From a virus (taxonomy: Duplodnaviria; Heunggongvirae; Uroviricota; Caudoviricetes): a stretch of 64,000 nucleotides of DNA. Positions 4,839 through 60,845 of this stretch are shown piece by piece; positions within the stretch are counted from its first letter, which is position 1, and each line of letters opens with the position of its first letter. The stretch lies in the IMG/VR virus record IMGVR_UViG_2740892441_000001, one strand, 5' to 3'. The notes below the pieces were generated by a model. The model did not search any database, was not told where the DNA came from, and saw only the letters and a list, made by a program, of their open reading frames with translations. The translations under genes and the position numbers were made by a program.

Positions 4839-4936
4839 GTCTGGGCATGTCTTACTAAGCCTGCTTCCGTATATATTTAATAAGTTACTTATTATTTATA
4901 TATACGGAAGCAGGTCTTTAAATAACGTCCCAGACC
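4839..4936. repeat. Long near-perfect palindrome (CCTGCTTCCGTATATAT ... ATATATACGGAAGCAGG) with outer GGTCTGGG/CCCAGACC arms
   Basis: Read directly; lies between stop of 4939-5205 gene and the terS promoter region; a second copy of the same arm sequence is at ~35979-36037. Confidence 0.7.
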
Positions 4937-4938
4937 GA

Positions 4939-5205
4939 TTACATCACCAGTAACTTCGCTTTGGCTCGACCTAAAGTGGTTAACCCAAGAGTCCGGCGGT
5001 GATAGCGATTGTCACTGCGTTGGCGCGTATGCCCTTTCTCCACCAGCCCCTTTTTTATCAGAGCGCGAATTGAGAACTGGATACTTTGCTTTGTTGTCTT
5101 GTACGGCAAAACTTCAAGCAATTCGTCCAGATCAAGTAGATGACCTCGCTCATAACCGAGATTGAGCGTTTTGATGATGTCCTTTTGTTTGTCGGTTAAC
5201 GTCAT
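4939..5205 (-). CDS. Small putative DNA-binding protein (winged-helix-like)
   Basis: 88 aa, basic C-terminus; first gene downstream of the 5215-8112 operon. Confidence 0.45.
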   Translation of the reverse strand: MTLTDKQKDIIKTLNLGYERGHLLDLDELLEVLPYKTTKQSIQFSIRALIKKGLVEKGHTRQRSDNRYHRRTLGLTTLGRAKAKLLVM

Positions 5206-5214
5206 GGCAAATCC

Positions 5215-7432: not shown

Positions 7433-8112
7433 TACATACACTCCTTGTAGTAGTCGACCAGCCACACCAGAGCCTCACCAGCGTTCTCCATTTCATTACC
7501 GGTGTTAATAGCCTGCTCTTTGATGATGTTTTTTATGGTTTCTGCAACACGATCTGACGCATCGAAAGTTACTTTGAAGCGCATGGTCTGATGTTCCGCA
7601 CCCACACGTTCGGTTTTCTCTCGTTTGTCGGTATCGACAGGCTCATCACTACCACGAGACAACGCCTCCAGTGCTTCAAGGTCGATTGCCGCCTCTTTTG
7701 CTAAAACCATCGAGATTTCGTCGTCATACGGGGCGATTTCAGACAGTTGATAGTCAAGTTCTGACTGAATTTCTTCAATGAAGCGTTGCAATGCGATTTG
7801 GTCGTCTTCACCGTATCGCTCGTTGTCCACTAGTGACATCTGTTTAGCTACGACATCGCTAATTTTGCCCACAGAAAGCACCGGAACCGTTGAAATTCCT
7901 TGCTCAATAGCAGCACGCCAGCGATGTTCGCCGCCGAGGATTTCAAAAAATCCATCTTCAAGTTCACGAGCCAAAATTGGCTTAAAAAAGCCCAATTTTT
8001 CGATAGAACCTTTCAGTTTTTCAAAATTCTGCGCACCAACCGAATTGGTGTTCCAGGTATTCGGGCGAAGGTTGGCAACATCAACCTGCAAAATCGTGAT
8101 TTTTACATCCAT
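7432..8112 (-). CDS. ParB-like nuclease domain protein
   Basis: ParB/Srx signature FEILGGEHRWRAAIEQGISTVPV; first gene of the operon, divergent from helicase gene. Confidence 0.65.
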   Translation of the reverse strand: MDVKITILQVDVANLRPNTWNTNSVGAQNFEKLKGSIEKLGFFKPILARELEDGFFEILGGEHRWRAAIEQGISTVPVLSVGKISDVVAKQMSLVDNERYGEDDQIALQRFIEEIQSELDYQLSEIAPYDDEISMVLAKEAAIDLEALEALSRGSDEPVDTDKREKTERVGAEHQTMRFKVTFDASDRVAETIKNIIKEQAINTGNEMENAGEALVWLVDYYKECM

Positions 8113-19774: not shown

Positions 19775-19810
19775 AAATTCTCCGTTATCTAGTATGAAGC
19801 GATTGCCGGA

Positions 19811-20119
19811 TTACCATTGCCAGCACTCAAGCCCTTCAACGACCGGTGCGCCACAATCAAAATGTACAGAGTCAAAGCCTACATCAAGTACTTTCTGAAT
19901 GTTCGCAATCGCGCCCTCGGATATACCATATCGACGCAACTCATCTTTCCAGTCATCGTCCTGTAACCCGGCGTGGACAATGCAACCGTACTCAATTTGT
20001 GAAACCCAATCCAGCTCATTGCTTGCGATCATGAATCGGCGAGCATCTTCCTCTGATGTATGAGATGAGCTGATCAATGCCACCTGGTAGGCTTGGGTAA
20101 TGTTCAACATTTCAACCAC
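19811..20119 (-). CDS. Hypothetical protein
   Basis: 102 aa; tandem conserved promoter elements at 20120-20195 upstream. Confidence 0.5.
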   Translation of the reverse strand: MVEMLNITQAYQVALISSSHTSEEDARRFMIASNELDWVSQIEYGCIVHAGLQDDDWKDELRRYGISEGAIANIQKVLDVGFDSVHFDCGAPVVEGLECWQW

Positions 20120-20271
20120 TCCGAAACAATTTGTTTTCTTATGTGGCTTATTATCTCAATCAACAAAAGGCAGAAAACAAATTGTTTTAGGGTTTGTTAA
20201 AGTCAGAAGGGATTGTGTCTATATGAAAATGCCCAGCGTATTGCCGGGCATTGTGAAGAATGGTTGCTTAA

Positions 20272-22305
20272 TTACTTAACCTGGTGGCCAGGTTTAGCAC
20301 CAGCATCCGGGCTTAACAGGAAGATGTCTTTCCCGCCGGGGCCAGCAGCCATCACCATGCCTTCGGAGATACCGAAACGCATTTTACGCGGAGCCAGGTT
20401 AGCCACCATAATGGTGTGACGGCCAATCAGTGCCTGTGGGTCTGGATAAGCGGAACGGATGCCTGAGAAGACATTGCGTTTTTCACCGCCGAGATCCAGC
20501 GTCAGGCGCAGCAGTTTGTCAGAACCTTCAACAAAGTCTGCGTTTTCGATCAGCGCCACGCGCAGGTCAACTTTGGCAAAGTCGTCAAAGGTGATGGTTT
20601 CCTGAATCGGGTCGTCTGCCAGCGGGCCAGTAACTGGCGCGGCAGTAGCTTTCACTTCTTCTTTAGACGCTTCCACCAATGCTTCCACCTGTTTCATGTC
20701 GATACGGTTATACAGTGCTTTGAACGGATTCACTTTATGGCCCAGCAGCGGTTGCTGGATACCATCCCAGGTCAGTTCTGTATTCAGGAATGCTTCTGCA
20801 CGTTCAGTCAGTTTCGGCAGTACCGGCTTCAGGTACGTCATCAGCACGCGGAACAGGTTAATGCCCATAGAGCAAATCGCCTGCAGATCGGCATCGCGTC
20901 CTTCCTGCTTCGCCACCACCCACGGAGCCTGTTCATCGACATAGCGGTTAGCCAGGTCAGCCAATGCCATGATTTCACGGATAGCTTTACCAAATTCGCG
21001 GCTTTCCCATGCTTCGCCAATCACTTCAGCGGCATCAGTAAAGGTTTTGTACAGTTGCGAGTCAGCCAGTTCGCTTGCCAGCACGCCGTCAAAACGCTTG
21101 TTGATAAAGCCTGCATTACGGGAGGCCAGGTTAACCACTTTGTTCACGATATCGGCATTCACGCGCTGAACGAAATCCTCCAGGTTGAGATCGATATCAT
21201 CAATGCGCGAAGAGAGTTTCGCAGTGTAGTAGTAACGCAGGCTGTCGGCGTCAAAATGATTCATCCAGGTGCTGGCTTTAATAAAGGTGCCGCGAGACTT
21301 GGACATCTTCGCGCCGTTCACCGTCACATAGCCGTGAACAAACAGGTTGGTCGGCTTGCGGAAGTTGCTGCCTTCCAGCATGGCAGGCCAGAACAGGCTG
21401 TGGAAGTAAACGATATCTTTACCGATGAAGTGGTACAGCTCGGCGGTGGAGTCTTTCTTCCAGTATTCATCGAAGCTGGTAGTGTCGCCGCGCTTGTCGC
21501 ACAGATTCTTGAAGGAACCCATGTAGCCAATCGGTGCGTCCAGCCAGACGTAGAAATATTTACCCGGCGCGTTCGGAATTTCAAAACCGAAGTAAGGTGC
21601 GTCGCGGGAGATATCCCACTGTTGCAGACCAGATTCAAACCACTCCTGCATTTTGTTTGCCACCTGCTCCTGCAACGCACCGCTGCGGGTCCATGCCTGC
21701 AACATTTCGCTGAAAGAGGGCAGATCAAAGAAGAAGTGTTCAGAATCACGCATTACCGGCGTAGCGCCAGAAACTACCGATTTCGGCTCAATCAGTTCAG
21801 TCGGGCTGTAGGTCGCGCCGCAAACTTCACAGTTATCGCCGTATTGATCTGGCGCTTTACATTTCGGACAGGTGCCTTTCACAAAACGATCCGGCAGGAA
21901 CATGCCTTTTTCCGGGTCGTACAACTGAGAGATAGTGCGGTTTTTAATAAAACCGTTCTCTTTCAGGCGAGTATAGATAAGCTCAGACAGCTGGCGGTTC
22001 TCTTCGCTGTGCGTCGAGTGATAGTTGTCATAGCTGATGTTAAAGCCTGCGAAATCAGTCTGGTGTTCCTGGCTCATTTCGCCAATCATCTGTTCCGGTG
22101 TGATACCAAGCTGCTGTGCTTTCAGCATGATCGGCGTACCGTGGGCATCGTCGGCGCAGATGAAGTTGACCTCGTGGCCGCGCATTCGCTGGTAACGGAC
22201 CCAGACATCAGCCTGGATGTGCTCCAGCATATGGCCGAGGTGGATTGAGCCGTTAGCGTACGGCAGCGCGCACGTCACCAGAATTTTCTTCGCGACTTGG
22301 GTCAT
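20272..22305 (-). CDS. metG: Methionine--tRNA ligase (methionyl-tRNA synthetase), enterobacterial type
   Basis: 677 aa from [26 protein letters not shown]... with HIGH (HLGH) and KMSKS motifs; recalled as near-identical to E. coli MetG; start reassigned to 22305. Confidence 0.97.
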
Positions 22306-22462
22306 AGTAGGCATTACTTCTTTGTAGTGAAAAGGGGCTTGATAGTAACAAAATGGCCTTATGTCTGCCATGTGATAACAGCATTTCTCATAAATGATTA
22401 AATGTCGTAGCTGGAGTACACTACAAGGCGACAATTGCGCAAATTAAAATAAAGGAGACGGG

Positions 22463-23563
22463 ATGAGCGAGTCCAAATCGCCGGATGCCCTGAGAGCAAT
22501 GGTAGCCGGTACGCTGGCTAATTTTCAGCACCCAACCCTGAAGCACAACCTGACTACGCTTAAAGCGTTACACCATGTTGCGTTGATGGATGACACACTG
22601 CATGTCGAACTAATCATGCCTTTCGTGTGGAATAAGCCTTTTGAAGACCTGAAAGAGCAATGTAGTGGTGATCTGCTCCGTATCACTGGCGCAAAGGCTA
22701 TCGACTGGAAGCTGTCGTACAACATTGCCACGCTTAAGCGCGTCAAAAACCAACCAGGCATTAATGGCGTTAAGAACATCATCGCCGTCAGCTCAGGCAA
22801 GGGCGGTGTAGGCAAATCGTCCACAGCAGTAAACTTGGCACTGGCGTTGGCTGCTGAAGGTGCGAAAGTTGGTATTTTGGATGCCGATATCTACGGTCCA
22901 TCAATTCCAACCATGCTGGGTGCGGAAAACCAACGTCCAACCTCACCGGACGGTACTCACATGGCACCTATCATGTCTCATGGCCTGGCAACCAACTCTA
23001 TTGGTTATCTGGTCACCGACGACAATGCAATGGTGTGGCGTGGACCGATGGCCAGCAAGGCGTTAATGCAGATGTTGCAGGAAACTCTATGGCCTGATCT
23101 GGACTATCTCGTTCTCGATATGCCGCCGGGCACTGGTGATATTCAATTGACGCTGGCGCAGAACATTCCTGTAACTGGTGCTGTTGTGGTAACTACGCCG
23201 CAAGATATCGCGCTGATCGATGCGAAGAAAGGCATTGTGATGTTCGAAAAAGTCGAAGTGCCGGTACTGGGTATCGTCGAAAACATGAGTGTGCATATTT
23301 GCAGTAACTGCGGTCATCACGAGCCAATTTTTGGCACCGGTGGCGCACAGAAGCTGGCCGAGAAATACAACACGCAGTTGTTAGGCCAAATGCCACTTCA
23401 TATCTCTCTTCGTGAAGATCTGGATAACGGAACACCAACCGTTATTAGTCGTCCAGATAGCGAATTTACGGCTATTTATCGTGACCTCGCAGATCGCGTT
23501 GCTGCCCAAATGTATTGGCAAGGTGAAGTAATACCTGGCGAAATCGCATTCCGCGCAGTGTGA
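22463..23563 (+). CDS. apbC: Iron-sulfur cluster carrier protein ApbC/Mrp (P-loop ATPase)
   Basis: 366 aa; deviant Walker A SGKGGVGKSS and CxxC motif (CSNCGH); divergent from metG with enterobacterial-type intergenic region. Confidence 0.95.
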   Translation: MSESKSPDALRAMVAGTLANFQHPTLKHNLTTLKALHHVALMDDTLHVELIMPFVWNKPFEDLKEQCSGDLLRITGAKAIDWKLSYNIATLKRVKNQPGINGVKNIIAVSSGKGGVGKSSTAVNLALALAAEGAKVGILDADIYGPSIPTMLGAENQRPTSPDGTHMAPIMSHGLATNSIGYLVTDDNAMVWRGPMASKALMQMLQETLWPDLDYLVLDMPPGTGDIQLTLAQNIPVTGAVVVTTPQDIALIDAKKGIVMFEKVEVPVLGIVENMSVHICSNCGHHEPIFGTGGAQKLAEKYNTQLLGQMPLHISLREDLDNGTPTVISRPDSEFTAIYRDLADRVAAQMYWQGEVIPGEIAFRAV

Positions 23564-23565
23564 TA

Positions 23566-23590
23566 AAAAGGTGGTGCAATGCACCACCTA
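23566..23590 (+). terminator. Hairpin GGTGGTGCAATGCACCACC after apbC
   Basis: Perfect inverted repeat immediately after apbC stop. Confidence 0.5.
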
Positions 23591-23600
23591 AACAGTTCTC

Positions 23601-23990
23601 CTACATCACAGGACAATCATCAAACTCGCCACTTCTTGCGTCGTTGATAATGTGAGTGATCACACCAAACACGGCATTGCTGCCCGTGCATCCATCATCA
23701 TCCTTTGGCAATGCTTCCTTCTTACCAGTTCTTAAATCCTCCAGATGCTGACGTGGATACTTCCGGTATCTTTTTACGCGATATTCCCCATCCAGAGCAC
23801 ATACAAGAAGAGATCCATCAACAGGAGTGAGTGAGGAATCGACCACCAGCAATGCACCCTGCAATATTCCCTCACGATGATGACTATCAGCCGCCCTCAT
23901 GAAGTAGGTCGCTGAAGGATGTCTAATTATCTGCTGATCAAGAGAAATACGGCTCTCTGCATAATCCGCCGCAGGAGATGGGAAGCCCAT
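23601..23990 (-). CDS. UmuD'-like S24 peptidase-fold protein (HumD-like, lacks UmuD N-terminal arm)
   Basis: 129 aa starting MGFPSPAADYAESR, matching E. coli UmuD from Gly25 onward; conserved Ser and Lys positions present; LexA box upstream. Confidence 0.85.
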   Translation of the reverse strand: MGFPSPAADYAESRISLDQQIIRHPSATYFMRAADSHHREGILQGALLVVDSSLTPVDGSLLVCALDGEYRVKRYRKYPRQHLEDLRTGKKEALPKDDDGCTGSNAVFGVITHIINDARSGEFDDCPVM

Positions 23991-24008
23991 AGCGTTTTCA
24001 CCTCAAAA

Positions 24009-29503: not shown

Positions 29504-31189
29504 TTATTTAACGCGTTTGAAAACGTATACGCTGACTGTGATCCCGGTATCTTCAAACTCGTTGGTAAACGACTTCCCTTTGGCATAAACGTAATTATCC
29601 ATCGTCATCCAGCTCAGGATTGGCGCAGTGCCCGGCAATACTGCTACAAGACGCCCGCCGACTTTCAGATGCCCCAGCGCAGCCAGCGTGTGCTCTCTAT
29701 GACGACCAAGCGAGTACGGCGGGTTCATAACGATTTTGTCGAACTGATAACCTGCGTTGTCCTCAGACCACTTTATGAAGTCACAGCAAATCGTGTTCGT
29801 ATACCCTTTTCCACGCAGGATATCAGCGAAGAGAGGTGCGATTTCTATGCAGGTAACATCTTCCAGATCGGCGTTAATATAGGCCAGAAGATCCCCACGT
29901 CCGGCTTGAGGCTCCAGCAGCTTCTCACCAGGCTTCAATTCAGTGGCTCTGGCAACGTACTCAGCAATCAAGCGTGGGGTAGGGTAGAACTGGTGTGATT
30001 TTGTATCCGGTATTAAACCGGTAGCCACAATCGTATTTAGCGTATGGCCGATGTCATACGGGAACTGCCAGTGCTTTTTCTCCTGCACGCCGCCAATGAA
30101 GCTCAGTGTGCGCTCAAGCTCTTCCACCTGCGACTTCTGGAGAGCTGAATCAGAGAAGTACCATACGCCTTTGTCTTTGCTCAATCGCCCGTCACGAAGC
30201 GCAGTGCGAACCGGCACGGAGATCGTCTTCTGGATTAAACCGAACTGCTTTGGTGCCCGTGTTTTTGGCGCAGTTCGGCATGGCGAGGGGATTGCAGCAG
30301 GCATACTGTAAGCCAGCACCTCATTCAACTTCCAGGCCACGTCAGGATGTATTTCAAAGTGAACGTTGCCGTTCTTGAACATCTTCACGCGCATCAGATT
30401 TCCATCGACGTTCATCCAGTCACCGGTCTGGCAGTCGTTTGCCCTATACGCAGCTGATAGCACCTCAGCAGTGCGGTTGATGGTAATAAATTCTTTGTGC
30501 GCGAAGAAATGAAGCAAGACACGCAGATCGTCGATGTAGTCCTCTTTGCGATAGTTCACGCTAACGCTGTCCCGCCAGAAATCAGAAATGCAGTCAGCGA
30601 TTATCAGACGCTCGCTGAAACCGTTTGTCTTATTTGTCTTGTGCGCAGGACTCAGCGCCTTAAACAAGCCATACACGCGCTCAGAGAGATATTTGTGCCT
30701 GTCATTCAGCAAATTAAGCATCGTGGGTATGACCGTTTCTGCTTTGAACTCCGGTACACCAACGAACTCTTTAACCTTCATCTGGTAGCCGGTTCTGTCG
30801 GTTTTGATGACTTCCTGTTTGCCCTCTATAAACTGCTCGCGCCACTCATCTCGACGGGAAGCTGGCATGATCAGCAAAACGTTAGTCATGTCCGTGACCT
30901 TCCTCCAGTACTCGGCCCAAATATTCTGTTTCACCCATTCCAGATCGACTTTATCCAGCCAAGCTCGATTCAAACGTGAGCGTTCTTCATCTGGTCGGTG
31001 GTTCAGTTGCAGCAGGCGATTAATCATGTTGTGGCGTTCGTCGCCATAAACGAAGTCGTGAACCTGGTACATGAAAGCGATCTCTTTCTCGCACTCGGCC
31101 ACAATTTCGTGGATGACGTTCATTTCCTGCCGATAGTCGATAGCAGTGTTTGAGTTGGCATCGTCGATGATGGAAAGGGCTGTATTCAT
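29504..31189 (-). CDS. DNA N6-adenine methyltransferase (gamma-class C-terminal domain) with large N-terminal domain of unknown function
   Basis: C-terminal motifs in order X-I-IV: YPTP, LEPQAGRGDL, IVMNPPYS; N-terminal ~390 aa unassigned. Confidence 0.8.
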   Translation of the reverse strand: MNTALSIIDDANSNTAIDYRQEMNVIHEIVAECEKEIAFMYQVHDFVYGDERHNMINRLLQLNHRPDEERSRLNRAWLDKVDLEWVKQNIWAEYWRKVTDMTNVLLIMPASRRDEWREQFIEGKQEVIKTDRTGYQMKVKEFVGVPEFKAETVIPTMLNLLNDRHKYLSERVYGLFKALSPAHKTNKTNGFSERLIIADCISDFWRDSVSVNYRKEDYIDDLRVLLHFFAHKEFITINRTAEVLSAAYRANDCQTGDWMNVDGNLMRVKMFKNGNVHFEIHPDVAWKLNEVLAYSMPAAIPSPCRTAPKTRAPKQFGLIQKTISVPVRTALRDGRLSKDKGVWYFSDSALQKSQVEELERTLSFIGGVQEKKHWQFPYDIGHTLNTIVATGLIPDTKSHQFYPTPRLIAEYVARATELKPGEKLLEPQAGRGDLLAYINADLEDVTCIEIAPLFADILRGKGYTNTICCDFIKWSEDNAGYQFDKIVMNPPYSLGRHREHTLAALGHLKVGGRLVAVLPGTAPILSWMTMDNYVYAKGKSFTNEFEDTGITVSVYVFKRVK

Positions 31190-31292
31190 AATTGCACCAT
31201 TAAGAAGTGATTTGTTTAATGGTGCAATTATTTCAAAAATGAAAAGGTACTAAATAGAAATAAACAGGCAATCCTTCAAATAAAGGCATTGG

Positions 31293-32191
31293 CTAATCAT
31301 ACTTGGAGGTATTTATCACCAGAATTTTGTTTGTATAAATCTTCTTAATATCCCATGTGACATTACCGGAATACCATTGACCGTTATATACTTGGTTTCC
31401 AGTTGCACCTGTCATTGTTACATAGACAGGTCTGTCGTAATCGGTTCGTCTATAGTTATATACCCCAACCATAGCAGGCATTACCGCACATGGATACCCC
31501 ATATCTATTGTAAATTGAGGGTCAGAAATAGTGATAAGTTTCGCATCAAGGGGCATCATCTCACCGTGATACACCATTGCGCCTGCGCTGTTATACATGG
31601 CAATGCCATAGCCAGAATGTGGTAACACCATATCAGAAAAAGCATAAACTGTTATTGTTCCGGGGCTACCATTTACCTGATGCAATCTGAGAGCATTGTA
31701 TCCGTTACTATGCTCATGAATAAACATCATGTTCGCCTTATTACTGCTTTTTATGAAAAAAAAACATGATTTGTTTGATGGGATTGATGTTTGAAAAACA
31801 GAACCTTTAGATGTAGACATTGTCCCTTTATTAATCAGATTTTGCGGAGTAAATTCTGGACTCATCCACAAACTTCCATCTGATTGAGTAATTGACATCC
31901 CGAACATAATTATCCCCAGTATGTGTATATGTAAGAACCAAGCCCTGTATATAAATTTGACCAACTAACCGTATTTCCATTAATTGTCACTGTTGGAATA
32001 GGTAAATCGATATAGTTGTCGTTGTTAAGAGGCATCAGTGACCATACAGCATGTAGCGATTTACCCGGTGGTGGATTGGAGTACGTCTTAGAGCCTGATG
32101 ACGCCGTAAATCGATCAAGAAAAAAAATAGGTGTAAGGAAGCCTGTAACGTTAATTCCTTTATTGTTGTAAATCCCTGTACCGTATGCCAT
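31293..32191 (-). CDS. Hypothetical protein(s); two overlapping ORFs (31910-32191 and 31293-31964) possibly one frameshifted gene
   Basis: Low-GC region; ORFs overlap by ~55 nt in different frames. Confidence 0.35.
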
Positions 32192-32245
32192 TTTTCATCC
32201 TTGTTTTTATCAACATAATATGGCCGATCATGCGGCCATATCAGA

Positions 32246-32815
32246 TCAATTAGAGCTTTGAAAGGCTTTGTGTGGCTGTGTTGCGAGGTTATGTCGATGA
32301 CTTAACTCACGCATCATGTCTTCAAGGCGACTCTTTGTGTCGTCGAGTTGATCAGCCATTGCTCCCAAAAGCTGACGAACGGCCATCGGATCGTCGCTGT
32401 TTAGTGATGGCATTTTATAACCCGCCTGAGAAGACATCAGATTGAACGCAGACATCAACATCGTTAGAGAGGATTTAAGCCCGGCAATTTCACGATCTTT
32501 GCTGGCAATAATCGTCTCACTTTTGTTACCGTCATGAGTTCCTTGAGTCTCGCTCACCATATCCAAAGTCGCTTGCAACTTATCAGCTCTCTCTTTTTCA
32601 GCAAGGTAATGAACACCGAAATGATGTGCTAAAGCTACAACCTGAGTTGGTTCTTCAAAGGTGGAATTAAAATTAAGTACTGTAAACAGTCTCTCAAATA
32701 TGGAAACGTCTTCTGTTCCCCGAACAATGCCTAACATTTTGACAAGTTCATTAGCATCCATTTCTTCGAATAGGGCGTTTTGTTCATCAGCTATTGCTTT
32801 GCATTTCTCGCACAT
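32246..32815 (-). CDS. Hypothetical protein
   Basis: 189 aa; conserved promoter element at 32828-32860 upstream. Confidence 0.5.
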   Translation of the reverse strand: MCEKCKAIADEQNALFEEMDANELVKMLGIVRGTEDVSIFERLFTVLNFNSTFEEPTQVVALAHHFGVHYLAEKERADKLQATLDMVSETQGTHDGNKSETIIASKDREIAGLKSSLTMLMSAFNLMSSQAGYKMPSLNSDDPMAVRQLLGAMADQLDDTKSRLEDMMRELSHRHNLATQPHKAFQSSN

Positions 32816-32954
32816 GTGTTTTCCTTAATGCTTAAACAAGTTGTTTTCTTATTGGCTTTATTGTGATGTGACATAAAAGGGGAGCAAGCTAAACGTAAAG
32901 GTGCAAACTCTCTATTTCGGTCAACGAAACACAAGGGCCAAATGGCCCTTGTCA

Positions 32955-33113
32955 TTAACACGTTGCTTTACGGACTAGCGGATAAGCGAAGTAGATCGCC
33001 AGACCAATGAGGACGCCATCAGAAATGACAGACATCATCTTTCCCGTAAAATCCACCAACACCGCCATCACCAGAAGAGCAATGACGGTCACAAGCCGGA
33101 ATCTCTCAAGCAT
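32955..33113 (-). CDS. Small hydrophobic protein (52 aa), translationally coupled to the TerB-like gene
   Basis: Hand-translated MLERFRLVTVIALLVMAVLVDFTGKMMSVISDGVLIGLAIYFAYPLVRKATC; ATG overlaps upstream stop; below the 60 aa ORF cutoff. Confidence 0.3.
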   Translation of the reverse strand: MLERFRLVTVIALLVMAVLVDFTGKMMSVISDGVLIGLAIYFAYPLVRKATC

Positions 33114-33538
33114 TAGAGATAAGCATCCAGTGACAACTGAAGCGCCTGGGCGATCTTTTTCAGCGCCAGCTCTTCTGGTTCATCAATGCCGTCTTGGTCG
33201 GCAATATCAAGGCACAGACACAGTACATCTACTGCATCATCAGTCCCGGCCACATCCGCCAGCTCACGTAAAGCCTGGGCATTAGCACGGCGCGGTGAGG
33301 CTTCGTATTGAGCGCGGATATTGGCGCTCATCTGGGCAATCTCACCAGCAAAAGGAGAAAATGCAGGCAGAGCTGCAATTGTTTTCTCAAGAATGGAAAT
33401 TTCTTTTGCGTCACATGTACCGTTGGCATAGGAGATCATGTACCCGCCCCACACGGTGGCTTCAACCGCATCACGGTTCTCCATTTTTTTGACTTCGATA
33501 ACTGCTTTACGAGTTTTCTTTTTGAAGAAACCTAACAT
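33113..33538 (-). CDS. TerB-like domain protein
   Basis: 141 aa; C-terminal DIADQDGIDEPEELALKKIAQAL resembles TerB-type repeats. Confidence 0.45.
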   Translation of the reverse strand: MLGFFKKKTRKAVIEVKKMENRDAVEATVWGGYMISYANGTCDAKEISILEKTIAALPAFSPFAGEIAQMSANIRAQYEASPRRANAQALRELADVAGTDDAVDVLCLCLDIADQDGIDEPEELALKKIAQALQLSLDAYL

Positions 33539-33631
33539 GTGTTTTCCTTTTGTTATTTGTCAAAACAAGTTGTTTTCTAGTTAAATAAATTGCTTACGCA
33601 AAGACGGTCAATGCATAGGCACTAACAGCCG

Positions 33632-33823
33632 TCAGAAATAACCAAGTACCGAACCAACTGGAAAAACAAAAATCCCAACTACACGAGCCAAGGTCATGCC
33701 AGCCTGAAACTGGAGATCACCAGAGCAAACAAGTTTTATAATGTTCGATACCCAACCGGCGGCCATGAGGCCAGAATTGCCAGCCAAATTTTTCCAAAGT
33801 GATTTGAAAACCAGTTCATACAA
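33632..33823 (-). CDS. Small putative membrane protein
   Basis: 63 aa, hydrophobic. Confidence 0.35.
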   Translation of the reverse strand: MYELVFKSLWKNLAGNSGLMAAGWVSNIIKLVCSGDLQFQAGMTLARVVGIFVFPVGSVLGYF

Positions 33824-33828
33824 CCGCC

Positions 33829-34323
33829 TTAGTCACAGCATGATCCTGAGTAACTGGATGAACTTGAGGTATCGCATCCACCGCCATCCCATCCAGAGTG
33901 ACAGGACGCTCCACTGGAGTGGTGGTAATTGTCGTCGACGAAGGTGTGGTGATGGATGAATCCGGCATCAAAAGGCTCTGACCGGCTGGAACGGCTACCG
34001 TCGCCAGTGAAACTATAATGAGAACGTAGGCCATTGGTTTCAGCCTCTTTCTTTGAAAATTTTCCATCCGAACGGTCCTTGTTATTTTTCTCCTTCACTA
34101 AAGGCCGTGCATTTTTCGCTTCACATGAAGAACTGGAGGTTACAATCGCCCCCACGTTCGCAACAACTGACGCTTGCTTATCTAAACGTGCCTTCAGCAC
34201 CAGAACGGTAGTTTCCAATTCATCAAGACGTGACAGAAGGCGACCGCTAAATAATTCGGCCAAAATTTGACGTAAAGAACGAGGGCGTTTAGTTGCAGGA
34301 GTTAAAAAAAATTGACGTGCCAT
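33829..34323 (-). CDS. Hypothetical protein (C-terminal part doubtful; alternative embedded ORF 33816-34067 has a signal-peptide-like N-terminus)
   Basis: N-terminal 80 aa coiled-coil-like; C-terminal Ser/Gly/Cys-rich tail looks non-native. Confidence 0.3.
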   Translation of the reverse strand: MARQFFLTPATKRPRSLRQILAELFSGRLLSRLDELETTVLVLKARLDKQASVVANVGAIVTSSSSCEAKNARPLVKEKNNKDRSDGKFSKKEAETNGLRSHYSFTGDGSRSSRSEPFDAGFIHHHTFVDDNYHHSSGASCHSGWDGGGCDTSSSSSYSGSCCD

Positions 34324-34468
34324 ATGGACTCCATCCAGTGTCAGAAAGAGTTGCGGCTGGCGATTGCCAGCCGCCTTTCTCGTTCCATCCTGGAACTGTG
34401 TCTTACCGACACATTGTCATCCTGACGCCGATAAGATACATGATTTAAAATGATAGGTAAACACTTAC

Positions 34469-35062
34469 TTACTGCTTGTTATAAACAAAACCAATATCTT
34501 TCTTGTGAGGCATATCTGCTGCGGAAAAAGCTGCGATCTTCGCGAGTCGATCACATATTTCATTTTCACGATGCCCGGCGTGACCTTTAACCCACTTCCA
34601 GCGAACATTATGTCGACTTGCGGCCTCATCCAGACGCTTCCACAGATCAACATTCTTTACCGGTTTTTTGTCAGAAGTCATCCATCCATTGCGTTTCCAG
34701 AATTTCATCCACTGTGTCATGCCGTTTTTCAGATACTGGCTATCAGAGTGCATAATAACGTTGCATGGATATTTCAAACGCTCCAGCCCGATAAGTGCCC
34801 CCATCATCTCCATGCGGTTATTGGTGGTGCTATGAAAACCATCTGAGAACTCGCGTTCCTCACCACGATACTGGAGAACTATACCGTAACCGCCCGGGCC
34901 ACCCGGATTTTTAAGGCAAGAGCCATCACTGAAGATTTTCACGGTTTTAAGCTGGGGATTGAACTCTACGACAGGCGTTGTGGGATTGGTGCGGGGAGAA
35001 TTTTTGTTTTTGTCTTTTTTGCGAGTTTTTGCTTGCGACCGGGCTGGTGTCTTCGACGTCAT
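34469..35062 (-). CDS. rnhA: Ribonuclease HI with basic N-terminal extension
   Basis: Core [18 protein letters not shown]...[11 protein letters not shown]...DSQY...[15 protein letters not shown] closely parallels E. coli RNase HI; start set at MTSKTPARS (RBS GGAG). Confidence 0.9.
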
Positions 35063-35119
35063 ATAAACTCCTGAATCAAGCGCCGCGCCGTTTTTTCCTC
35101 GCGCGTGCGCACACACGTG

Positions 35120-35640
35120 CGTGTAATAATTATTAAAATAAACAAATTACTTCCCAGTACAGGTTTTTATAAACCTGAACTGAACGAACGAAGTGAGTGA
35201 AGTTCACCTCGAACGAAGTGAGAGGTTGTCTTTTCAGGTAATACTCTCCCAGGGAGGTGAGTATAAAATTCCTCACCAACCTGGTCGTTTCATAACCTGA
35301 AAAGCTATGGTCTAAGTCTACTGCCAGCTTAGACTTGGGAAGTTATGGATGACAGCACCCCAGAACCGAGATCTTCCCACACTTTATGAAGGGGAGTACT
35401 GGATTCAACCTCTCGAAACACCCCAGACTCGACAATCATAAAGTGACCCTTGTCTCCGCTCACTTTGGTTCCCCCTTCCCCGACACCTAAACGGCACCGG
35501 TTCTACGCTGGTAGTGAGCTTTTTTAAACCTGACGCCAGTGACGCTTACCCCCACCCATCAGGTCGAGTCTCCAGTCTACGACTGGAAACTATCAGATCT
35601 TAGCACTTACAATTCATCTTATGAATAGTTTGTACTTATC
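35120..35640. other. ~520 bp ORF-free region with multiple hairpins and a 12 bp direct repeat (GAACGAAGTGAG x2)
   Basis: No ORF of 60 aa or more on either strand; hairpins CAGGTTTttataAAACCTG, GGTGAG..CTCACC, GTCTAAG..CTTAGAC; AGTGAGC + TTTTTT at ~35511-35526. Confidence 0.5.
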
Positions 35641-35642
35641 TA

Positions 35643-35897
35643 TCATTTCGATTGATTATTTTCTCGACCATGTAGTTGAACATTCAAGGCAAACACCTCG
35701 TTAATCAACTCACCTAAAAGCTGTTCAACAAGTTCGCGATGCTCCCCAAGATGCAAGCACTTAATTGCCCATTCGTACAAGTTGAAAGCCTGCTCGCGAT
35801 CTTTCATCATTTCACGGGCCTGGGCCAGAAAATCGCTCTCTACGAGCGCAACGACATTAGTCGGGTATGACATGTTAGTTTCCTTAAAGTGATTCAT
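35643..35897 (-). CDS. Hypothetical small protein
   Basis: 84 aa; start may be the internal MSYPTNVV. Confidence 0.4.
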   Translation of the reverse strand: MNHFKETNMSYPTNVVALVESDFLAQAREMMKDREQAFNLYEWAIKCLHLGEHRELVEQLLGELINEVFALNVQLHGRENNQSK

Positions 35898-35953
35898 AAA
35901 ATCGATTTTAAAGCGTCTGGGAAGGGGTTCTAGTGGATTCTGTAGTGATGTTC

Positions 35954-36045
35954 AGGTCTGGAGTCTCTGATACAAAACAGCCTGCTTCCGTATATTAATA
36001 ATTAATATGTAGTTATTTATATATACAGAAGCAGGCTAATTACAG
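35954..36045. repeat. Second copy of the long palindrome (AGCCTGCTTCCGTATAT...ATATATACAGAAGCAGGCT)
   Basis: Shares the CCTGCTTCCGTATAT arm with the 4839-4936 palindrome. Confidence 0.7.
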
Positions 36046-36058
36046 ACGCCAGAACAAA

Positions 36059-36652
36059 CTAAGCAGCCTTCTTTGATGGTCTTTTTTTCCTGATCACATT
36101 CGCAGGATCATACCCTCCCAGACTTTTCATGACGTCCAAAGGGATCTTGCTTATAGAGTGCCCAGCGTCCTGACAGAATCCTCGAAAAACAACGAGCATA
36201 CTGCCACCTGGGTTGATGTTTACTTCTACCTGACCCAGATTGACGTCAGGCTCGACAAACGCTACGCGGCCACCAGACAGAATAATCGTCTCATTCGCAC
36301 ACTCTGTTGCACGCTCATACCACTTTGTATCTAGGGATTGAGGAATTAGCATCACTGTTGTAACTCCGCGAGCCTGCTCACGTATAGCCGCATCAATCCA
36401 GGGGGAGATTTTGGAGTAGGGTGGATTGAGGAAGGCAATTGTACCTGGCTGTCCCCATTCAGATTTCAAAGCATCACGCTCAACGCCTATGAAATTAGGC
36501 AGCTTTGCATTGTCCTTGTTGCAGGCAACGTCAACATCAAATGTCACTCCAAGATAACGTTGAATGGCAGAAAACAGCCAGTCAGGTGTTCTCCAGAGGT
36601 CACGAAGAGAGTTGTCGCGCTTTCGCTGTTTGATTTTTTCGGCTGCAATCAT
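36059..36652 (-). CDS. Phage Dam-type DNA N6-adenine methyltransferase
   Basis: DLWRTPDWLF and AFLNPPYS motifs characteristic of the phage Dam family. Confidence 0.8.
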   Translation of the reverse strand: MIAAEKIKQRKRDNSLRDLWRTPDWLFSAIQRYLGVTFDVDVACNKDNAKLPNFIGVERDALKSEWGQPGTIAFLNPPYSKISPWIDAAIREQARGVTTVMLIPQSLDTKWYERATECANETIILSGGRVAFVEPDVNLGQVEVNINPGGSMLVVFRGFCQDAGHSISKIPLDVMKSLGGYDPANVIRKKRPSKKAA

Positions 36653-36835
36653 CTTCTTTCTCGATAGGTAAGTAAATACCTATTTTTGCATTTGATTTTA
36701 TGTCTGGCAATCAAATAAAACGCGCCAGAAATGCAAACGAGAAGCTCTCTGGCGCGTTTTTGTGGTGCTGGGTATGTGATTGGCTTACCCAGCACTATAA
36801 AGCTCTCTATGGGCTTTATTTTCAGTAGGGGAACG

Positions 36836-37645
36836 TCATCCAATAGTGTACTCCGCGACAAACTTCTTAACGATCGGTGATTCTTCGTTCAATGTTAGAT
36901 TTCCACCGCCTCTAACGGCAATTCCTGTCGCTGGAAATACAGCCATCATTTGCCCAGCCTGAGTTGACGCAGTGTTAAGCGGATACGGTTTTTCTGGATT
37001 GCTCATTAAAGCAATCTTAATACTATTACTTGTAGCCTTCTTTTCTGTGAGAAGGTGTCTCATGGAAATTACCGTGTAAACACTAATATCTGGACCTCCG
37101 CTAAACCAATTAAGAAGGTTTAATATCTTATCCTTTGCTTTGACAGGCGCGTTATCGTAAGCGTCTAAGAAAATATCTTTTTCTAAGCCCGCTTTATTGA
37201 AAAACGAATCATCTTTATCACTTAAAGTAAAACGAGGACCTCTTGCAGTACGAGCTTTTTTATTTGTATTGCTATCATTTGACTGTTGAACTTTTAATTC
37301 ATCATTAACCTCAACACACTCTTCAACCTCAATAAATCCCAATTGTTCTGGCTCGTTTTCGGCAGCTTCAACACTTTCAGCGTTAATTACGTTTATAGGC
37401 TCATGCGCTAACTCCAACTCATTTAAAGCAGAGCTGAAATCACCTGCTTTTTCTTCATTGAACAGTTCTTCGGCAACATCATCAGAACTCATGGCTACGC
37501 CAGCATCTAGGCCGAGCAGCAGATCGTCAATATCATCAGTATTTTCAACCTGTGCAGCTTTTTTTACTGGTTCATCAAGTGATTGCAACATGGCTGTCAG
37601 CTCGTCCAGATCATCATTTGTCATTACATTTTCAACCGAACTCAT
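36836..37645 (-). CDS. Hypothetical protein with highly acidic N-terminal half
   Basis: 269 aa; N-terminal ~110 aa extremely D/E-rich; terminator hairpin at ~36720-36755 downstream. Confidence 0.5.
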   Translation of the reverse strand: MSSVENVMTNDDLDELTAMLQSLDEPVKKAAQVENTDDIDDLLLGLDAGVAMSSDDVAEELFNEEKAGDFSSALNELELAHEPINVINAESVEAAENEPEQLGFIEVEECVEVNDELKVQQSNDSNTNKKARTARGPRFTLSDKDDSFFNKAGLEKDIFLDAYDNAPVKAKDKILNLLNWFSGGPDISVYTVISMRHLLTEKKATSNSIKIALMSNPEKPYPLNTASTQAGQMMAVFPATGIAVRGGGNLTLNEESPIVKKFVAEYTIG

Positions 37646-37803: not shown

Positions 37804-38352
37804 TTACACAATTTCAGAGGGTAATTTAAAAAATCCGTACTTATTACGTGCCTTAAAGAAGCATTGCATCATTAAGTTTGTGTCATATAAGGCACTATGT
37901 GCTTTGGCATGATCGTATATAAAGCCAAGAGAGAAGGCCAACTCTTCAAGGCGGGGACGTTTACCGTCTTCTGTGGCCCACAGGGAAAATAGAGTGTCAA
38001 TCAATGGGATGTCTGGAAGCGAAAAACCGTAACTTTTCAGCTCATGCCTAATAAACGGAATATCGAACGCTTCGCCGTTGTGGGCTATCCAAATATCGGA
38101 AGAAGAGAGATACGAAGCGACAGATGAAGCGTGATCGGCTAGTAACGGCTCGGCGGCTAAATCTTCAAGACTGATGCCGTGTACCGCTTGCGCTTTCGGA
38201 TCGATACTGCGACGCGGGTTGAACCGCATTGCAAAACTATCAACCATTGTCTGTGTCTCAATTTCGTACTTCACCATTGCGATTTCAATGATTTTATGGC
38301 CTGAGAGGAAATCAAGACCTGTTGATTCGATGTCCACCCCTGTAGCAATCAC
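37804..38352 (-). CDS. DnaQ-like (DEDD) 3'-5' exonuclease
   Basis: Exo I VDIESTGL, Exo II IAHNGEAFDIPF, Exo III HSALYDT motifs. Confidence 0.8.
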   Translation of the reverse strand: MIATGVDIESTGLDFLSGHKIIEIAMVKYEIETQTMVDSFAMRFNPRRSIDPKAQAVHGISLEDLAAEPLLADHASSVASYLSSSDIWIAHNGEAFDIPFIRHELKSYGFSLPDIPLIDTLFSLWATEDGKRPRLEELAFSLGFIYDHAKAHSALYDTNLMMQCFFKARNKYGFFKLPSEIV

Positions 38353-39143
38353 TTTTTATCTCCTTTTACTGGTCGTTTGGACGGTGTGAAGATGGCAGCT
38401 TCAACATCCCACCCCCTCAAAATTCGCTGCGAGATAATGGTCGCAGTCAAGCCAACCTCTCTAGCCCATTCGGTAATTCGCTGAGTTCTGCCGCGACACT
38501 CGATCAGACGCTTACTATCTCGGTTGGCATACGTGTCGACGCTGGCGTTAAGCGCGCGATCTAATGGCCACCCTTTCTTGATTCGATAGTGAAGAGTTGA
38601 TGTCTGAATCCCGGCTCTTTTAGCCCATTGTGAGAGAGTCAGCTTTTCCCCCTTATGCTCCAAAATTAAGTTTGAACGCGTGTTATTGGCCTGTTCTTCA
38701 AAAGTCGCCCATCTGCAATTTTCAGGTTCGTAGTCACCATTCACATCTTTGCGATCAAGAGACATCCCCTCTGGTCGCTCTCCCATGTCAGCATAAAAGT
38801 TTTCAAATATTTGCCACCGCTCGCAGACTTTGATACCTCGGCCGCCATACCACTTATAGGCGTGATGGGTTGGTTTTTCACATCGTTCCCGCATACCCAG
38901 CCATATACGATAAATTGGCGTTTTACTCATACCATGAGGCTTTACGCTACGGCGATGTGCGTTGTAGACACAGCCACACGATATTGTCGCCCCGTGATTT
39001 AGCTTCCCGTAACTAACCAGGCAGGTGTTGCCGCAATCGCAGATGCAATCCCAAAGTCGCCCTTGTTTGTTTGAAATACCGGAATATTTAAGTGCAACCA
39101 ACTTTCCAAAACGTTTACCTGTTATGTCTACCGGTTGTCCCAT
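38349..39143 (-). CDS. HNH/AP2-type homing-endonuclease-like protein
   Basis: Cys cluster CICDCGN...CGC plus IYRIWLGMRERC...YGGRGIKVCERW...F.NFYADMG typical of phage free-standing HNH endonucleases. Confidence 0.65.
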   Translation of the reverse strand: MGQPVDITGKRFGKLVALKYSGISNKQGRLWDCICDCGNTCLVSYGKLNHGATISCGCVYNAHRRSVKPHGMSKTPIYRIWLGMRERCEKPTHHAYKWYGGRGIKVCERWQIFENFYADMGERPEGMSLDRKDVNGDYEPENCRWATFEEQANNTRSNLILEHKGEKLTLSQWAKRAGIQTSTLHYRIKKGWPLDRALNASVDTYANRDSKRLIECRGRTQRITEWAREVGLTATIISQRILRGWDVEAAIFTPSKRPVKGDKK

Positions 39144-39152: not shown

Positions 39153-39571
39153 TTACAACTTCTTAGCGCCCTTAAGTAGTGCGCTACGTACAAATTGAGC
39201 CGCTTTTTTCAAAGTTTCTTCACTGGTTTCACAGACAACCGGATCTTTCCACTTACCTGACGCCGTGTTGAGAATGTTGATTTGGTTGCTATCCAGACAA
39301 ACAGAGACGTAAAGCACCGTGCCACCAGCCAGCATCAAATGCATAGGAAACAGAGGCTTTTTACTGCCTTCACTGAACTGAGACATGGCGATGTTAATGC
39401 TTCACCTACTTGTGCGCCAACAAGCCCTTGCGCAATTTCGAATACGGTACGAATAGCCAGACGAGCCTCTCGATCGCTCATAAGCGACCGGGAATGTTCG
39501 TCCGCTACACGAATCAAAGCCTCTGTTGTTTTCCGATCCAGTTCATCTTCAAGTAACATTTCACTAAACAT
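39153..39571 (-). CDS. Hypothetical protein; two overlapping ORFs (39335-39571 and 39153-39386), possible frameshift
   Basis: ORFs overlap in different frames; no motif recognised. Confidence 0.3.
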
Positions 39572-58505: not shown

Positions 58506-60845
58506 TTAATCTTCTAGTTCTTCTGTTGGTGATGTCTTCTCTCGTCGGTCATCTATCGCCTGTAACGCAGCAATGATTTCAGCCAGTGGCTTCTCCCGAT
58601 ACATCTCGACGATCTGCGATTTGGTGTATTTCTTGTCACCAATTTCAACTCTCCCGCTGGCGTTCTTTGGCAGGTATCCTTCTTCCAGCATGTACTCGAC
58701 GAGCGATTCGATAACGTCGAGGCCACGAGTAGGATCGAAGTAGAATTTCCAGGTGCATTTGCCATACGGTGGTGCAACTTTGTTTTTGATGCACTCTGCG
58801 CCTACGTCCTGACCGATCTTCTCTTTCCCATCCTTCATCACCGATGCACCGAGACGGATGCGCACAGAAGCGTAAAACTTCGGTGAATCGCCGCCTGGAG
58901 ACGTAGTAGGGTCGCCAAACATTACACCGATTTTTGTGCGAACCTGATTCAAGAAGATGATGCAGGCGTTGTATTTGCGTGCCCACAAAGCCAGAGTAGG
59001 GAAGTTCGCACTCGTCGCACGCGCCAGTGCCGTATTGTCGTTCATGTTTAGCTGATCTTTGTCTTTGGCTGTGCCTTCAGCCATCTTTTCGAACTTCTCG
59101 GCTTTGGAGTTCGGAACCATAGACGCAAGAGAGTCAGCCACGATACAGATAGGTGCTGATTCGGGGATAAGCTCTTCATCACGAACCAATTTAAGTATTG
59201 TGCCGATCAACTCTACAGAGTCTTCGAAGGTATCTGGCTGCTTGTATACCCACTGACCGTCATCCTCATCTGCATTCAAACCATTGGCTACAGCCAGGCC
59301 AACGTCAAAACTGTTTTCATGATCGAGGAATACCGCCAGACCATCTTGTTTTTGAGCGGAGATCATCGCTGCTGTTGCAAGGAATGTGTTGTGGCTGATA
59401 ATCCCGTTAGACCAGAAAGAGTGTGTTTCCGGCATCGCTACGTCGAACGTTGGTGCTTCACCTTCCTCAATAGCCACGACTTCGTCGTAGAACAAGTTAG
59501 AGCCAATTACCGCTGCCAGTTGTGCAAACAGATGCTCGTTAAAACGATTCTTTCTGCCAATGAAGGAGACATAGATTTCTCGCAGTTTGTCTATTCCGAC
59601 ACGATCGCCGCGGCCAATAACGTGGTCTACCAGAGCGTAGTCTTCACGGGTGGTCTTGGTGAGCGACTCGTAGAGTGATTTCACTAAGCCGCTGATGTGC
59701 GGAACATAGCCTGAGTAAGTGCGGTCAAAACCAATGTCCCGTTTGGTTGCCACTGATAAACGTGCCGGAGATTCGAAACCAATCGTTGACAGAAAAAGGT
59801 CGTAATTAGAGCCACTGAATGACAGCCGGTAATATGTATTTTCATAACCCGCGACGTGTTTTTCAGAGATAGTTGACGTAATCCCCAGATTCAGGAGCAT
59901 GAGGCGAATTTGCTGTAGCAGCAGCCCACTCGCGCTCACAACCTCAATGCAGCGACCATCATTGACGTGGCATTCCAGCTCAAAGTAGCCGCGAAGGAAT
60001 GCAATTTGAGCCTCGCTATTGGCGCGACGCACACTCAACGGAACCTGCTTGCCAGCAGCTTTCTCATACTCCAGACCATATTCTTTAAAAAGCAGCGAAC
60101 GCACCTCTTTGCTAAACAGCACATGGTCTTCCGAGCCGTTATGTTTTCTCGTAACTGGCATCTTGTCTGATACCAGCGAAATGAGGCGGTAGTACTCATC
60201 CTTGATGAAAGGATCTGTGTTAGAAAAATTCACTGAATTTTCAGAGGCCACGTATCCGTCAGCAATTAAATAGCCCATCAGTTTTGCGATATTGGCATCC
60301 AGGTGCTGATCGCCGAATTGATGTGTGCCAACCATTGAAGGAATCGTGTCGCCTACACTGATTTTTTCAGCATGTCGCCAGACGACATTACCTAAGTCGT
60401 CAACCACACGGATTGGGTGACGGAACGTAGCCTCGATATAACCGCCTGATGCCAGCTTAATACGCTTGAATTTGCGACGGTTGTTCCATGTCAGGTGTGA
60501 GGTCTTCTCTATCACGCCATTTTCATTGATGAGTCCAACGTTATGCTCTACATCGCGAGTAGTGCATGTCGCTTTGTACCCTTCAATCTCAAACAACTCT
60601 TTCACTGTTACCATTCCACGCTCCGTCAGCAGCATGGTGTCTGCGGTAACACATTTCCCCGCACTTGGAGGACCGAATACTTCGACGATACGACCACATG
60701 GGAAACCGCCATCGTAACGACCGGAAATCGCTTTGTTTAACGGAGGAAAGCCTGTGTCAATCCAATGAGTTACTTTCTGAATTTCGTCGTTGCTACCGAT
60801 TTTCTTTTTCAGAGCAAGTGCCAGTGCGGATTTTCCTTTTGCCAT
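58506..60845 (-). CDS. RecA/UvsX-like recombinase containing an intein in the Walker A P-loop
   Basis: 779 aa; extein reads FGPPSAGK | C...(422 aa)...SHN | TFLATAAM; removing residues 65-486 leaves ~357 aa, RecA-sized. Confidence 0.88.
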   Translation of the reverse strand: MAKGKSALALALKKKIGSNDEIQKVTHWIDTGFPPLNKAISGRYDGGFPCGRIVEVFGPPSAGKCVTADTMLLTERGMVTVKELFEIEGYKATCTTRDVEHNVGLINENGVIEKTSHLTWNNRRKFKRIKLASGGYIEATFRHPIRVVDDLGNVVWRHAEKISVGDTIPSMVGTHQFGDQHLDANIAKLMGYLIADGYVASENSVNFSNTDPFIKDEYYRLISLVSDKMPVTRKHNGSEDHVLFSKEVRSLLFKEYGLEYEKAAGKQVPLSVRRANSEAQIAFLRGYFELECHVNDGRCIEVVSASGLLLQQIRLMLLNLGITSTISEKHVAGYENTYYRLSFSGSNYDLFLSTIGFESPARLSVATKRDIGFDRTYSGYVPHISGLVKSLYESLTKTTREDYALVDHVIGRGDRVGIDKLREIYVSFIGRKNRFNEHLFAQLAAVIGSNLFYDEVVAIEEGEAPTFDVAMPETHSFWSNGIISHNTFLATAAMISAQKQDGLAVFLDHENSFDVGLAVANGLNADEDDGQWVYKQPDTFEDSVELIGTILKLVRDEELIPESAPICIVADSLASMVPNSKAEKFEKMAEGTAKDKDQLNMNDNTALARATSANFPTLALWARKYNACIIFLNQVRTKIGVMFGDPTTSPGGDSPKFYASVRIRLGASVMKDGKEKIGQDVGAECIKNKVAPPYGKCTWKFYFDPTRGLDVIESLVEYMLEEGYLPKNASGRVEIGDKKYTKSQIVEMYREKPLAEIIAALQAIDDRREKTSPTEELED
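59388..60653 (-). mobile_element. Intein (422 aa) with LAGLIDADG homing-endonuclease domain inside the recombinase gene
   Basis: N-terminal Cys after GPPSAGK, C-terminal His-Asn followed by Thr; LAGLIDADG-type motifs LMGYLIADGYV and IAFLRGYFELE. Confidence 0.8.

Follow-up and report, generated by a model that had tools for sequence, protein, structure and literature searches.

Characterized members of the phage Dam family (PF05869/TIGR01712) show GATC specificity. The methyltransferases of polyvalent proteins are of the EcoKI/TaqI-like gamma class, in which a TP-capped N-terminal helix faces the asparagine of NPP(Y/F) (Iyer et al. 2017, PMC5512222). The MADS system includes Mad2, an N6-adenine DNA methyltransferase for which modification of TCAGNNNNTCC has been shown (bioRxiv 10.1101/2023.03.30.534895), while M.EcoGIX and M.BceJIII are single-strand-specific plasmid methyltransferases of the beta class that carry DPPY (PMC7736820). 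Here, we analyze two methyltransferase genes, open reading frame A (ORF A) and ORF B, in a 64,000-nt stretch of DNA from IMG/VR virus record IMGVR_UViG_2740892441_000001 (the whole stretch is referred to below as the window), which comparison with plasmid and phage records identified as part of an SSU5-like phage-plasmid. The reading that we favor, with a probability of roughly 65%, is that this phage-plasmid carries two independent, partnerless, S-adenosylmethionine (AdoMet)-dependent N6-adenine DNA methyltransferases that have a self-protective, anti-restriction role.

The 8-kb stretch around both ORFs shares 97 to 98% identity with ~110-kb non-mobilizable Escherichia plasmids and 97.3% with Escherichia phage Cyrano; with Salmonella phage SSU5, the identity is 83% and extends across 63% of the stretch. 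Cyrano is pLF82, the phage-plasmid found in E. coli LF82; it is a siphovirus present at ~5.5 copies per cell (PMC9928086). In the window, ORF A and ORF B lie in a long minus-strand array of early, replication, and nucleotide-metabolism genes, and the timing of their expression may follow that of the array. Public records hold proteins of the same length that are 99 to 100% identical to both, under the names “DUF4942 domain-containing protein” (ORF A) and “phage N-6-adenine-methyltransferase” (ORF B). It is ordinary for a phage-plasmid to carry orphan methyltransferases, and both genes already bear such annotations.

Comparison with described systems

ORF B is like the phage Dam family, including dam of VT2-Sakai and the T1-like Dam, in its small size, its NPPY motif, and the lack of a partner gene. 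ORF A fits the TP/NPP(Y/F) description given for polyvalent-protein methyltransferases (PMC5512222). It differs from M.TaqI, M.BseCI, CamA, and HsdM in having no C-terminal target-recognition domain and in that its 394 extra residues lie at the N terminus, where they match no domain of solved structure; M.TaqI itself is only marginally similar to it in sequence (E = 0.16). The ORF A core shares 33 to 37% identity with parts of large phage proteins that are annotated as DarB-like antirestriction, PLxRFG-domain, or virion structural proteins, and it also matches PHROG families with profiles of 1259 to 3925 positions. In DarB-like proteins, however, the methyltransferase is fused to an SF2/SNF2 helicase, and the whole is a very large protein associated with virions or transfer, whereas ORF A is a 561-aa protein that has no SF2 helicase and carries DUF4942 instead of LPD36.

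M.EcoGIX and M.BceJIII offer a functional analogy to ORF A and ORF B, since they are orphan, borne by mobile elements, and anti-restriction at entry; they belong to a different family and have no sequence relationship to either ORF. A direct link to these enzymes, drawn from the database name “YdiA” and the plasmid context, was rejected: they are beta-class proteins with DPPY, whereas ORF A has NPPY in the gamma order.

ORF A ends in a minimal gamma-class methyltransferase core

The first-pass annotation, made from the sequence alone, had called two adenine methyltransferase ORFs in this region and had assigned the C-terminal third of the longer one to the gamma-class N6-adenine methyltransferases. 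Both ORFs are present, on the minus strand, at the coordinates given in Table 1, and motifs, PADLOC models, and a fold match bear out the assignment of the C-terminal third. Over its full length, ORF A matches phrog_6263 (E = 3.8e-299). Conservation was assessed in a set of 151 diverse ORF A relatives, 33 to 46% identical to the query. The FYPTP, EPQAGRGD, and NPPY motifs, together with the further core positions E449 and D470-F471, are 90 to 100% conserved in this set. The motifs follow one another in the order X (the TP helix), I, and IV (NPPY) with nothing intervening, which is the arrangement of the gamma class. The fold of the core model matches M.TaqI, M.BseCI, and CamA and is of the class I Rossmann type. 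Among DNA methyltransferase models of PADLOC, ORF A matched mad2 (E = 1.2e-15) and MTase_II (E = 2e-10); matches to the rRNA methyltransferase models Erm and KsgA of NCBIfam were marginal (E of about 1e-3).

Only 69 aa of ORF A, which complete the core, follow NPPY. Therefore, the C-terminal target-recognition domain usual for gamma enzymes is missing, and no hsdS-like gene was found near ORF A in the annotations of Cyrano and of a close-relative plasmid.

The N-terminal region of ORF A contains a highly conserved DUF4942 module

The ~390-aa N terminus of ORF A had been left unassigned in the first-pass annotation. This remains true in that no solved fold was matched, but residues 140 to 295 are Pfam DUF4942 (PF13708; E = 1.6e-20, 74 bits against a cutoff of 25), and residues 325 to 394 go with the methyltransferase core. 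AlphaFold2 (AF2) models divide residues 1 to 394 into four parts: a long-helix region, an alpha/beta DUF4942 core, a basic linker, and a small alpha/beta domain (Table 1). The first ~17 residues are modeled with low confidence. A Pfam search of residues 1 to 120 gave no match; residues 81 to 120 are conserved, with W95, T102, M108, and W116 as the marked positions. In the DUF4942 core, the near-invariant motifs LSxxHxTN (residues 179 to 186), D221-L-R223, W258, D262-G263, H277, and N289 are 97 to 100% invariant among the 151 relatives, which equals the conservation of the catalytic motifs. The variable stretches of ORF A are residues 121 to 140, which form a hypervariable hairpin, 201 to 220, 241 to 260, and 321 to 360. 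A stand-alone 299-aa family, phrog_38825, matches residues 129 to 301. A fold search with the N-terminal module found no solved structural analogue and no nuclease, enzyme, or effector fold.

The small domain pairs with the methyltransferase core in short relatives as well as in giant phage proteins. Matches in Firmicutes genomes and in several phages start at ORF A residues 328 to 358, and a 265-aa Lacrimispora relative, which scores above the PF02384 (N6_Mtase) threshold, consists of the small domain and the core alone. These matches place the small domain with the catalytic core. Within a methyltransferase, a classical specificity domain usually varies more than any other part. Since the motifs of the DUF4942 core are invariant, the small domain, together with the variable loops, would be a better candidate for reading the target sequence, and the DUF4942 core may serve something common to all members of the family.

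Two mosaic homologues of ORF A (P0044 and P0045) are E. coli-like, with 81 to 83% identity, up to the linker and Klebsiella-like beyond it. The sequences suggest that the basic linker (residues ~300 to 325; window positions ~30215 to 30290) may act as a recombination joint at which DUF4942 and methyltransferase modules are swapped between lineages.

ORF B is a member of the phage Dam family

ORF B scores above the cutoffs of both Pfam PF05869 (Dam; E = 2.5e-38, 131.8 bits against 28.1) and the NCBIfam equivalog TIGR01712 (phage_N6A_met; 113.9 bits against 97.05), as expected from the first-pass call of a phage Dam-type methyltransferase. It also matches phrog_111, and tblastn detected ~1980 phage records related to it. 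ORF B shares 39% identity with the dam genes annotated in VT2-Sakai (over residues 17 to 159) and other Stx phages and 27 to 35% with the enzymes of T1-like coliphages and Klebsiella phages; outside SSU5-like elements, any member of the family is only 27 to 41% identical to ORF B. A sequence search against solved structures gave no match for ORF B. By analogy with the characterized members of the family, ORF B probably targets GATC or a closely related sequence. The window shows no avoidance of GATC (274 sites; observed/expected ratio of 0.82), which is compatible with a GATC-specific ORF B but not diagnostic.

In front of ORF B stands a hairpin that looks like the intrinsic terminator of the upstream gene (36836 to 37645). 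It is followed by a promoter candidate and GAAAGAAG (Table 1), and therefore ORF B looks like its own transcription unit.

Neither methyltransferase has a nuclease partner

No endonuclease partner had been seen nearby in the first-pass annotation, and a wider search led to the same result. No restriction endonuclease is annotated over 32 kb of Cyrano or over 100 kb of a 98% identical plasmid, and the window segments that differ from these relatives encode no restriction enzyme. When all ORFs within 8 kb on either side of ORF A homologues were clustered at 47 homologous loci, no conserved neighbor was found; the top “clusters” were alternative-frame ORFs within the ORF A gene itself. No cognate endonuclease gene adjoins either methyltransferase gene, as one would in a type II restriction-modification system, and ORF A has neither the N-terminal PD-(D/E)XK nuclease nor the C-terminal target-recognition domain of type IIG/IIL (MmeI-like) enzymes. 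ORF A and ORF B are orphans.

An HNH endonuclease ORF of 264 aa (38349 to 39143, minus strand; phrog_374, E = 2e-79) is located 1.7 kb from ORF B, between a 3′-5′ exonuclease gene and the gene that follows. Cyrano and most E. coli relatives lack it; it was found in 112 plasmid records, mostly from Klebsiella (7 from Escherichia), compared to 710 records (218 from Escherichia) that contain the methyltransferase region. By this distribution, the HNH gene is a mobile insertion, a sporadic free-standing homing endonuclease, and was rejected as a cognate nuclease.

DUF4942-methyltransferases are widespread in mobile elements

The full-length architecture of ORF A (~510 to 580 aa) is represented by 365 clusters at 50% identity (E ≤ 1e-30) across many Proteobacteria. 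Full-length copies are present in 38 phage records, temperate Aeromonas and Pseudomonas phages among them, and the DUF4942 core in 2319 plasmid records, of which 1363 are conjugative and 823 non-mobilizable. Two distant homologues are located in lambdoid prophages past the repressor and replication genes, i.e., in early-right operons, where they adjoin other orphan methyltransferases (N6_N4_Mtase and C5). The IncHI2 plasmid R478 (NC_005211.1) encodes a full-length, 563-aa homologue of ORF A (30% identity, E = 9e-87). The DUF4942-methyltransferase family is a general feature of mobile elements and not peculiar to this phage-plasmid.

In R478 (positions 3560 to 7844), a Dam-family methyltransferase gene, annotated under a different family name, lies 1.8 kb from the DUF4942-methyltransferase gene, echoing the pairing in the phage-plasmid.

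The genome avoids 6-bp palindromes

In the window, 12 of the 64 palindromic hexamers are absent, while the mean number expected from first-order Markov simulation is 0.01. The absent palindromes are AAGCTT, AGCGCT, AGGCCT, CCTAGG, GAATTC, GAGCTC, GCATGC, GCTAGC, GGATCC, GGCGCC, GGGCCC, and GGTACC, which include the sites of EcoRI, HindIII, BamHI, KpnI, SacI, SphI, NheI, and ApaI. Eighteen of the 64 occur no more than twice; among nonpalindromic hexamers, 18 of 4032 are absent. Altogether, 648 palindromic hexamers were counted versus 1057 ± 35 in the simulated sequences. A like avoidance of palindromes extends over 100 kb in the relative NZ_CP072690. The pattern amounts to strong passive evasion of restriction, with restriction enzymes selecting strongly on the genome.

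Such restriction pressure makes it plausible that methylation is used for those sites that the element cannot avoid. Both enzymes would methylate the DNA of the replicating element, and progeny virions and plasmid copies would reach new hosts already protected against restriction systems with overlapping sites; methylation would in this way complement the avoidance of 6-bp palindromes. ORF A is a fusion in which the core and small domain (residues ~325 to 561) are joined via the basic linker to the conserved ~300-aa helical and DUF4942 module. In a division of labor, the small domain and variable loops would contact the target sequence, while the DUF4942 module might provide a function shared by the family, for instance, by binding DNA or its backbone in a general manner or by holding the core in position, and would not confer variable specificity.

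Discussion

Taken together, the avoidance of palindromes, the presence of homologues in early operons of prophages, and the DarB-like affinities of the core make self-protective methylation, which the first-pass annotation had proposed as likely, the best-supported role for ORF A and ORF B. Several observations weigh against it. E. coli hosts have Dam already, and an ORF B specific for GATC would add nothing to protection. The conservation of the DUF4942 module is too high for it to be a classical specificity domain, and the module is without a structural analogue; therefore, the role assigned to it above is a guess. In addition, the start codon of ORF A is embedded in a hairpin (ΔG of −20.6 kcal/mol, z of −6.4; Table 1) that may damp its translation. 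This hairpin is identical in Cyrano, while its 5′ arm is not kept in Kluyvera or Morganella relatives.

The 97 to 100% invariance of S180, H183, T185, N186, D221, R223, D262, H277, and N289, unlike that of typical specificity domains, might mean that the DUF4942 module has an autonomous second function, for example, as an anti-defense effector, a replisome- or partner-binding domain, or a second enzyme, and that ORF A is a two-activity protein. Lineage recombination at the linker and the occurrence of the methyltransferase core and small domain without the module are in line with this possibility, as are stand-alone DUF4942-like proteins, which are found in phages (phrog_38825 and two matches of 247 and 271 aa in BFVD) and in E. 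coli/Shigella islands, as exemplified by the DUF4942 protein of the Shigella SRL island, whose gene is listed next to those of KlcA-like and RadC-like proteins and of toxin-antitoxin systems (PMC6980539). Yet the best 120 matches in a search with the N-terminal profile all come from SSU5-like elements or near relatives, and all complete entries among them are full-length fusions to the methyltransferase core; the constancy of this fusion argues for functional coupling of the module to methylation. Moreover, no enzyme or effector fold was matched, and a target conserved across the family, as is the case in the Dam and CcrM families, would explain the invariance equally well. We therefore regard an autonomous module as possible but doubtful. 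Equally tentative is a proposal that DUF4942-methyltransferases form a distinct class of mobile-element enzymes, in which the core has no recognition domain and takes its direction from an N-terminal module that combines a new fold with an invariant polar site. The module could then be a DNA-reading or base-handling domain for one target, common to phages, phage-plasmids, and IncHI2 plasmids, or a second anti-defense activity accompanied by methylation of low specificity.

The location of both genes among replication and nucleotide-metabolism genes and the lack of GATC depletion would also be expected if the methyltransferases served the element’s own biology, i.e., replication, packaging, the lysis-lysogeny decision, or avoidance of mismatch repair. 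If specific for GATC, ORF B would duplicate host Dam, suggesting that full methylation is needed during rapid replication; at the pac site of phage P1, Dam methylation is required. Because the host already supplies Dam, a role in replication or packaging is a serious alternative for ORF B in particular. For the pair of enzymes, we consider this explanation unlikely, given that homologues occupy typical anti-restriction positions (prophage early operons with multiple methyltransferases and DarB-like proteins) and that restriction enzymes exert strong selection on the genome; the two roles do not exclude each other. That ORF A acts on RNA (N6-methyladenosine in rRNA or tRNA) rather than on DNA is very improbable. 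The weak matches to Erm and KsgA and the lack of a classical DNA target-recognition domain could be read in this way, but DNA methyltransferase profiles score better by many orders of magnitude, the TP...NPPY layout is typical of EcoKI/TaqI-like DNA enzymes (PMC5512222), the neighbors of the prophage homologues are DNA methyltransferases, and the core is common to DarB-like proteins. Scarcely credible is the idea that one of the enzymes is the modification half of an overlooked MADS-like or type IIG-like restriction or defense system, even though mad2 is the top PADLOC match of ORF A, the HNH gene is close to ORF B, and the functions of several neighbors are unknown. The likeness to Mad2 is confined to the catalytic core (profile positions 265 to 400 of 492), ORF A is not located in a mad1-mad8 or other defense operon, and the rest of the mad genes are absent save for a weak 28-residue match to mad1 on the HNH protein; a MADS-like system was rejected on these grounds. 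The sporadic occurrence of the HNH gene, the lack of a conserved ORF A neighbor at the 47 loci, and an N-terminal module without a nuclease fold likewise speak against a hidden system.

In Enterobacteriaceae, resistance genes commonly reside on SSU5-like phage-plasmids and IncHI2 plasmids. The methylation imposed by such elements influences the range of hosts open to them and the way in which methylome-based binning sees their DNA. Literature searches on DUF4942 proteins, PF05869, SSU5/Cyrano methylation, and phage-plasmid methylomes found no functional data. Since the DUF4942-methyltransferase family is very widespread (more than 2300 plasmid records and 365 clusters) and has neither a characterized member nor a structural analogue for residues 1 to 395, one methylome experiment would serve to annotate genes by the thousands. 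In other respects, what was found is to be expected of a known element.

Additional features of the window

Table 1. Coordinates of ORF A, ORF B, and associated sequence features in the window.
Feature	Position	Strand	Details or basis
ORF A, DUF4942 and N6-adenine methyltransferase fusion (phrog_6263)	29504-31189	-	561 aa, ATG start
ORF A residues 1-120, long-helix region	30830-31189	-	AF2 models, conservation
ORF A residues 121-300, alpha/beta DUF4942 core	30290-30829	-	Pfam, conservation, PHROG
ORF A residues 301-324, basic linker, pI 11	30218-30289	-	Conserved IP..R..PK..PK.F
ORF A residues 325-394, small alpha/beta domain	30008-30217	-	Most variable structured segment
ORF A residues 395-561, minimal gamma-order (EcoKI/TaqI-like) N6-adenine methyltransferase core	29507-30007	-	
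FYPTP, residues 401-405, TP motif on helix before core (motif X)	29975-29989	-	91-99% conserved
EPQAGRGD, residues 426-433, AdoMet-binding motif I	29891-29914	-	Conservation and sequence
NPPY, residues 489-492, catalytic motif IV	29714-29725	-	Conservation and sequence
Perfect 16-bp hairpin at ORF A start	31188-31231	-	3′ arm spans weak GGTG ribosome-binding site and AU of the start codon
ORF B, phage Dam-family N6-adenine methyltransferase	36059-36652	-	197 aa, ATG start
ORF B motif WRTP	36584-36595	-	Sequence
ORF B motif FDVDVAC	36521-36541	-	Sequence
ORF B motif NPPY	36416-36427	-	Sequence
Sigma-70-like promoter candidate for ORF B	36682-36710	-	TTGCCA-17-AAAAAT, extended TG; consensus match only
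ORF B ribosome-binding site GAAAGAAG	3′ of promoter candidate	-	Sequence
Strong hairpin and T-run, terminator-like	36717-36760	-	ViennaRNA ΔG of −26.2 kcal/mol

An Rfam scan of the window detected no RNA family. Host-like housekeeping genes are located at window positions ~19800 to 24000 and also in relatives (L001, 4096 to 7387; L086, 26739 to 31761). According to the annotation of the relatives, this cargo comprises methionyl-tRNA synthetase and an ApbC/MinD-like ATPase, with GTPase Der in one relative, which is unusual for a phage-plasmid. A 779-aa RecA-like protein (58506 to 60845, minus strand) is split by an intein that carries a LAGLIDADG homing endonuclease, as can be seen from its Pfam matches to Intein_splicing, LAGLIDADG_3, and RecA. 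The corresponding ~1.26-kb insert (59391 to 60653) is absent in the E. marmotae relative, where the gene encodes ~357 aa.

The homologue of the 139-aa Cyrano protein CYRAN_76 (39153 to 39571, minus strand) appears frameshifted into two overlapping ORFs, 39335 to 39571 and 39153 to 39386, the latter matching positions 63 to 139 of phrog_5373; either a pseudogene or an error in sequencing could account for this. The RNase HI gene (34469 to 35116, minus strand) encodes 215 aa, and its RNase_H domain begins only at residue 58. The basic N-terminal extension of ~57 aa hinges on a GTG start; the annotated product is 198 aa long in Cyrano and 215 aa long in the E. marmotae plasmid.

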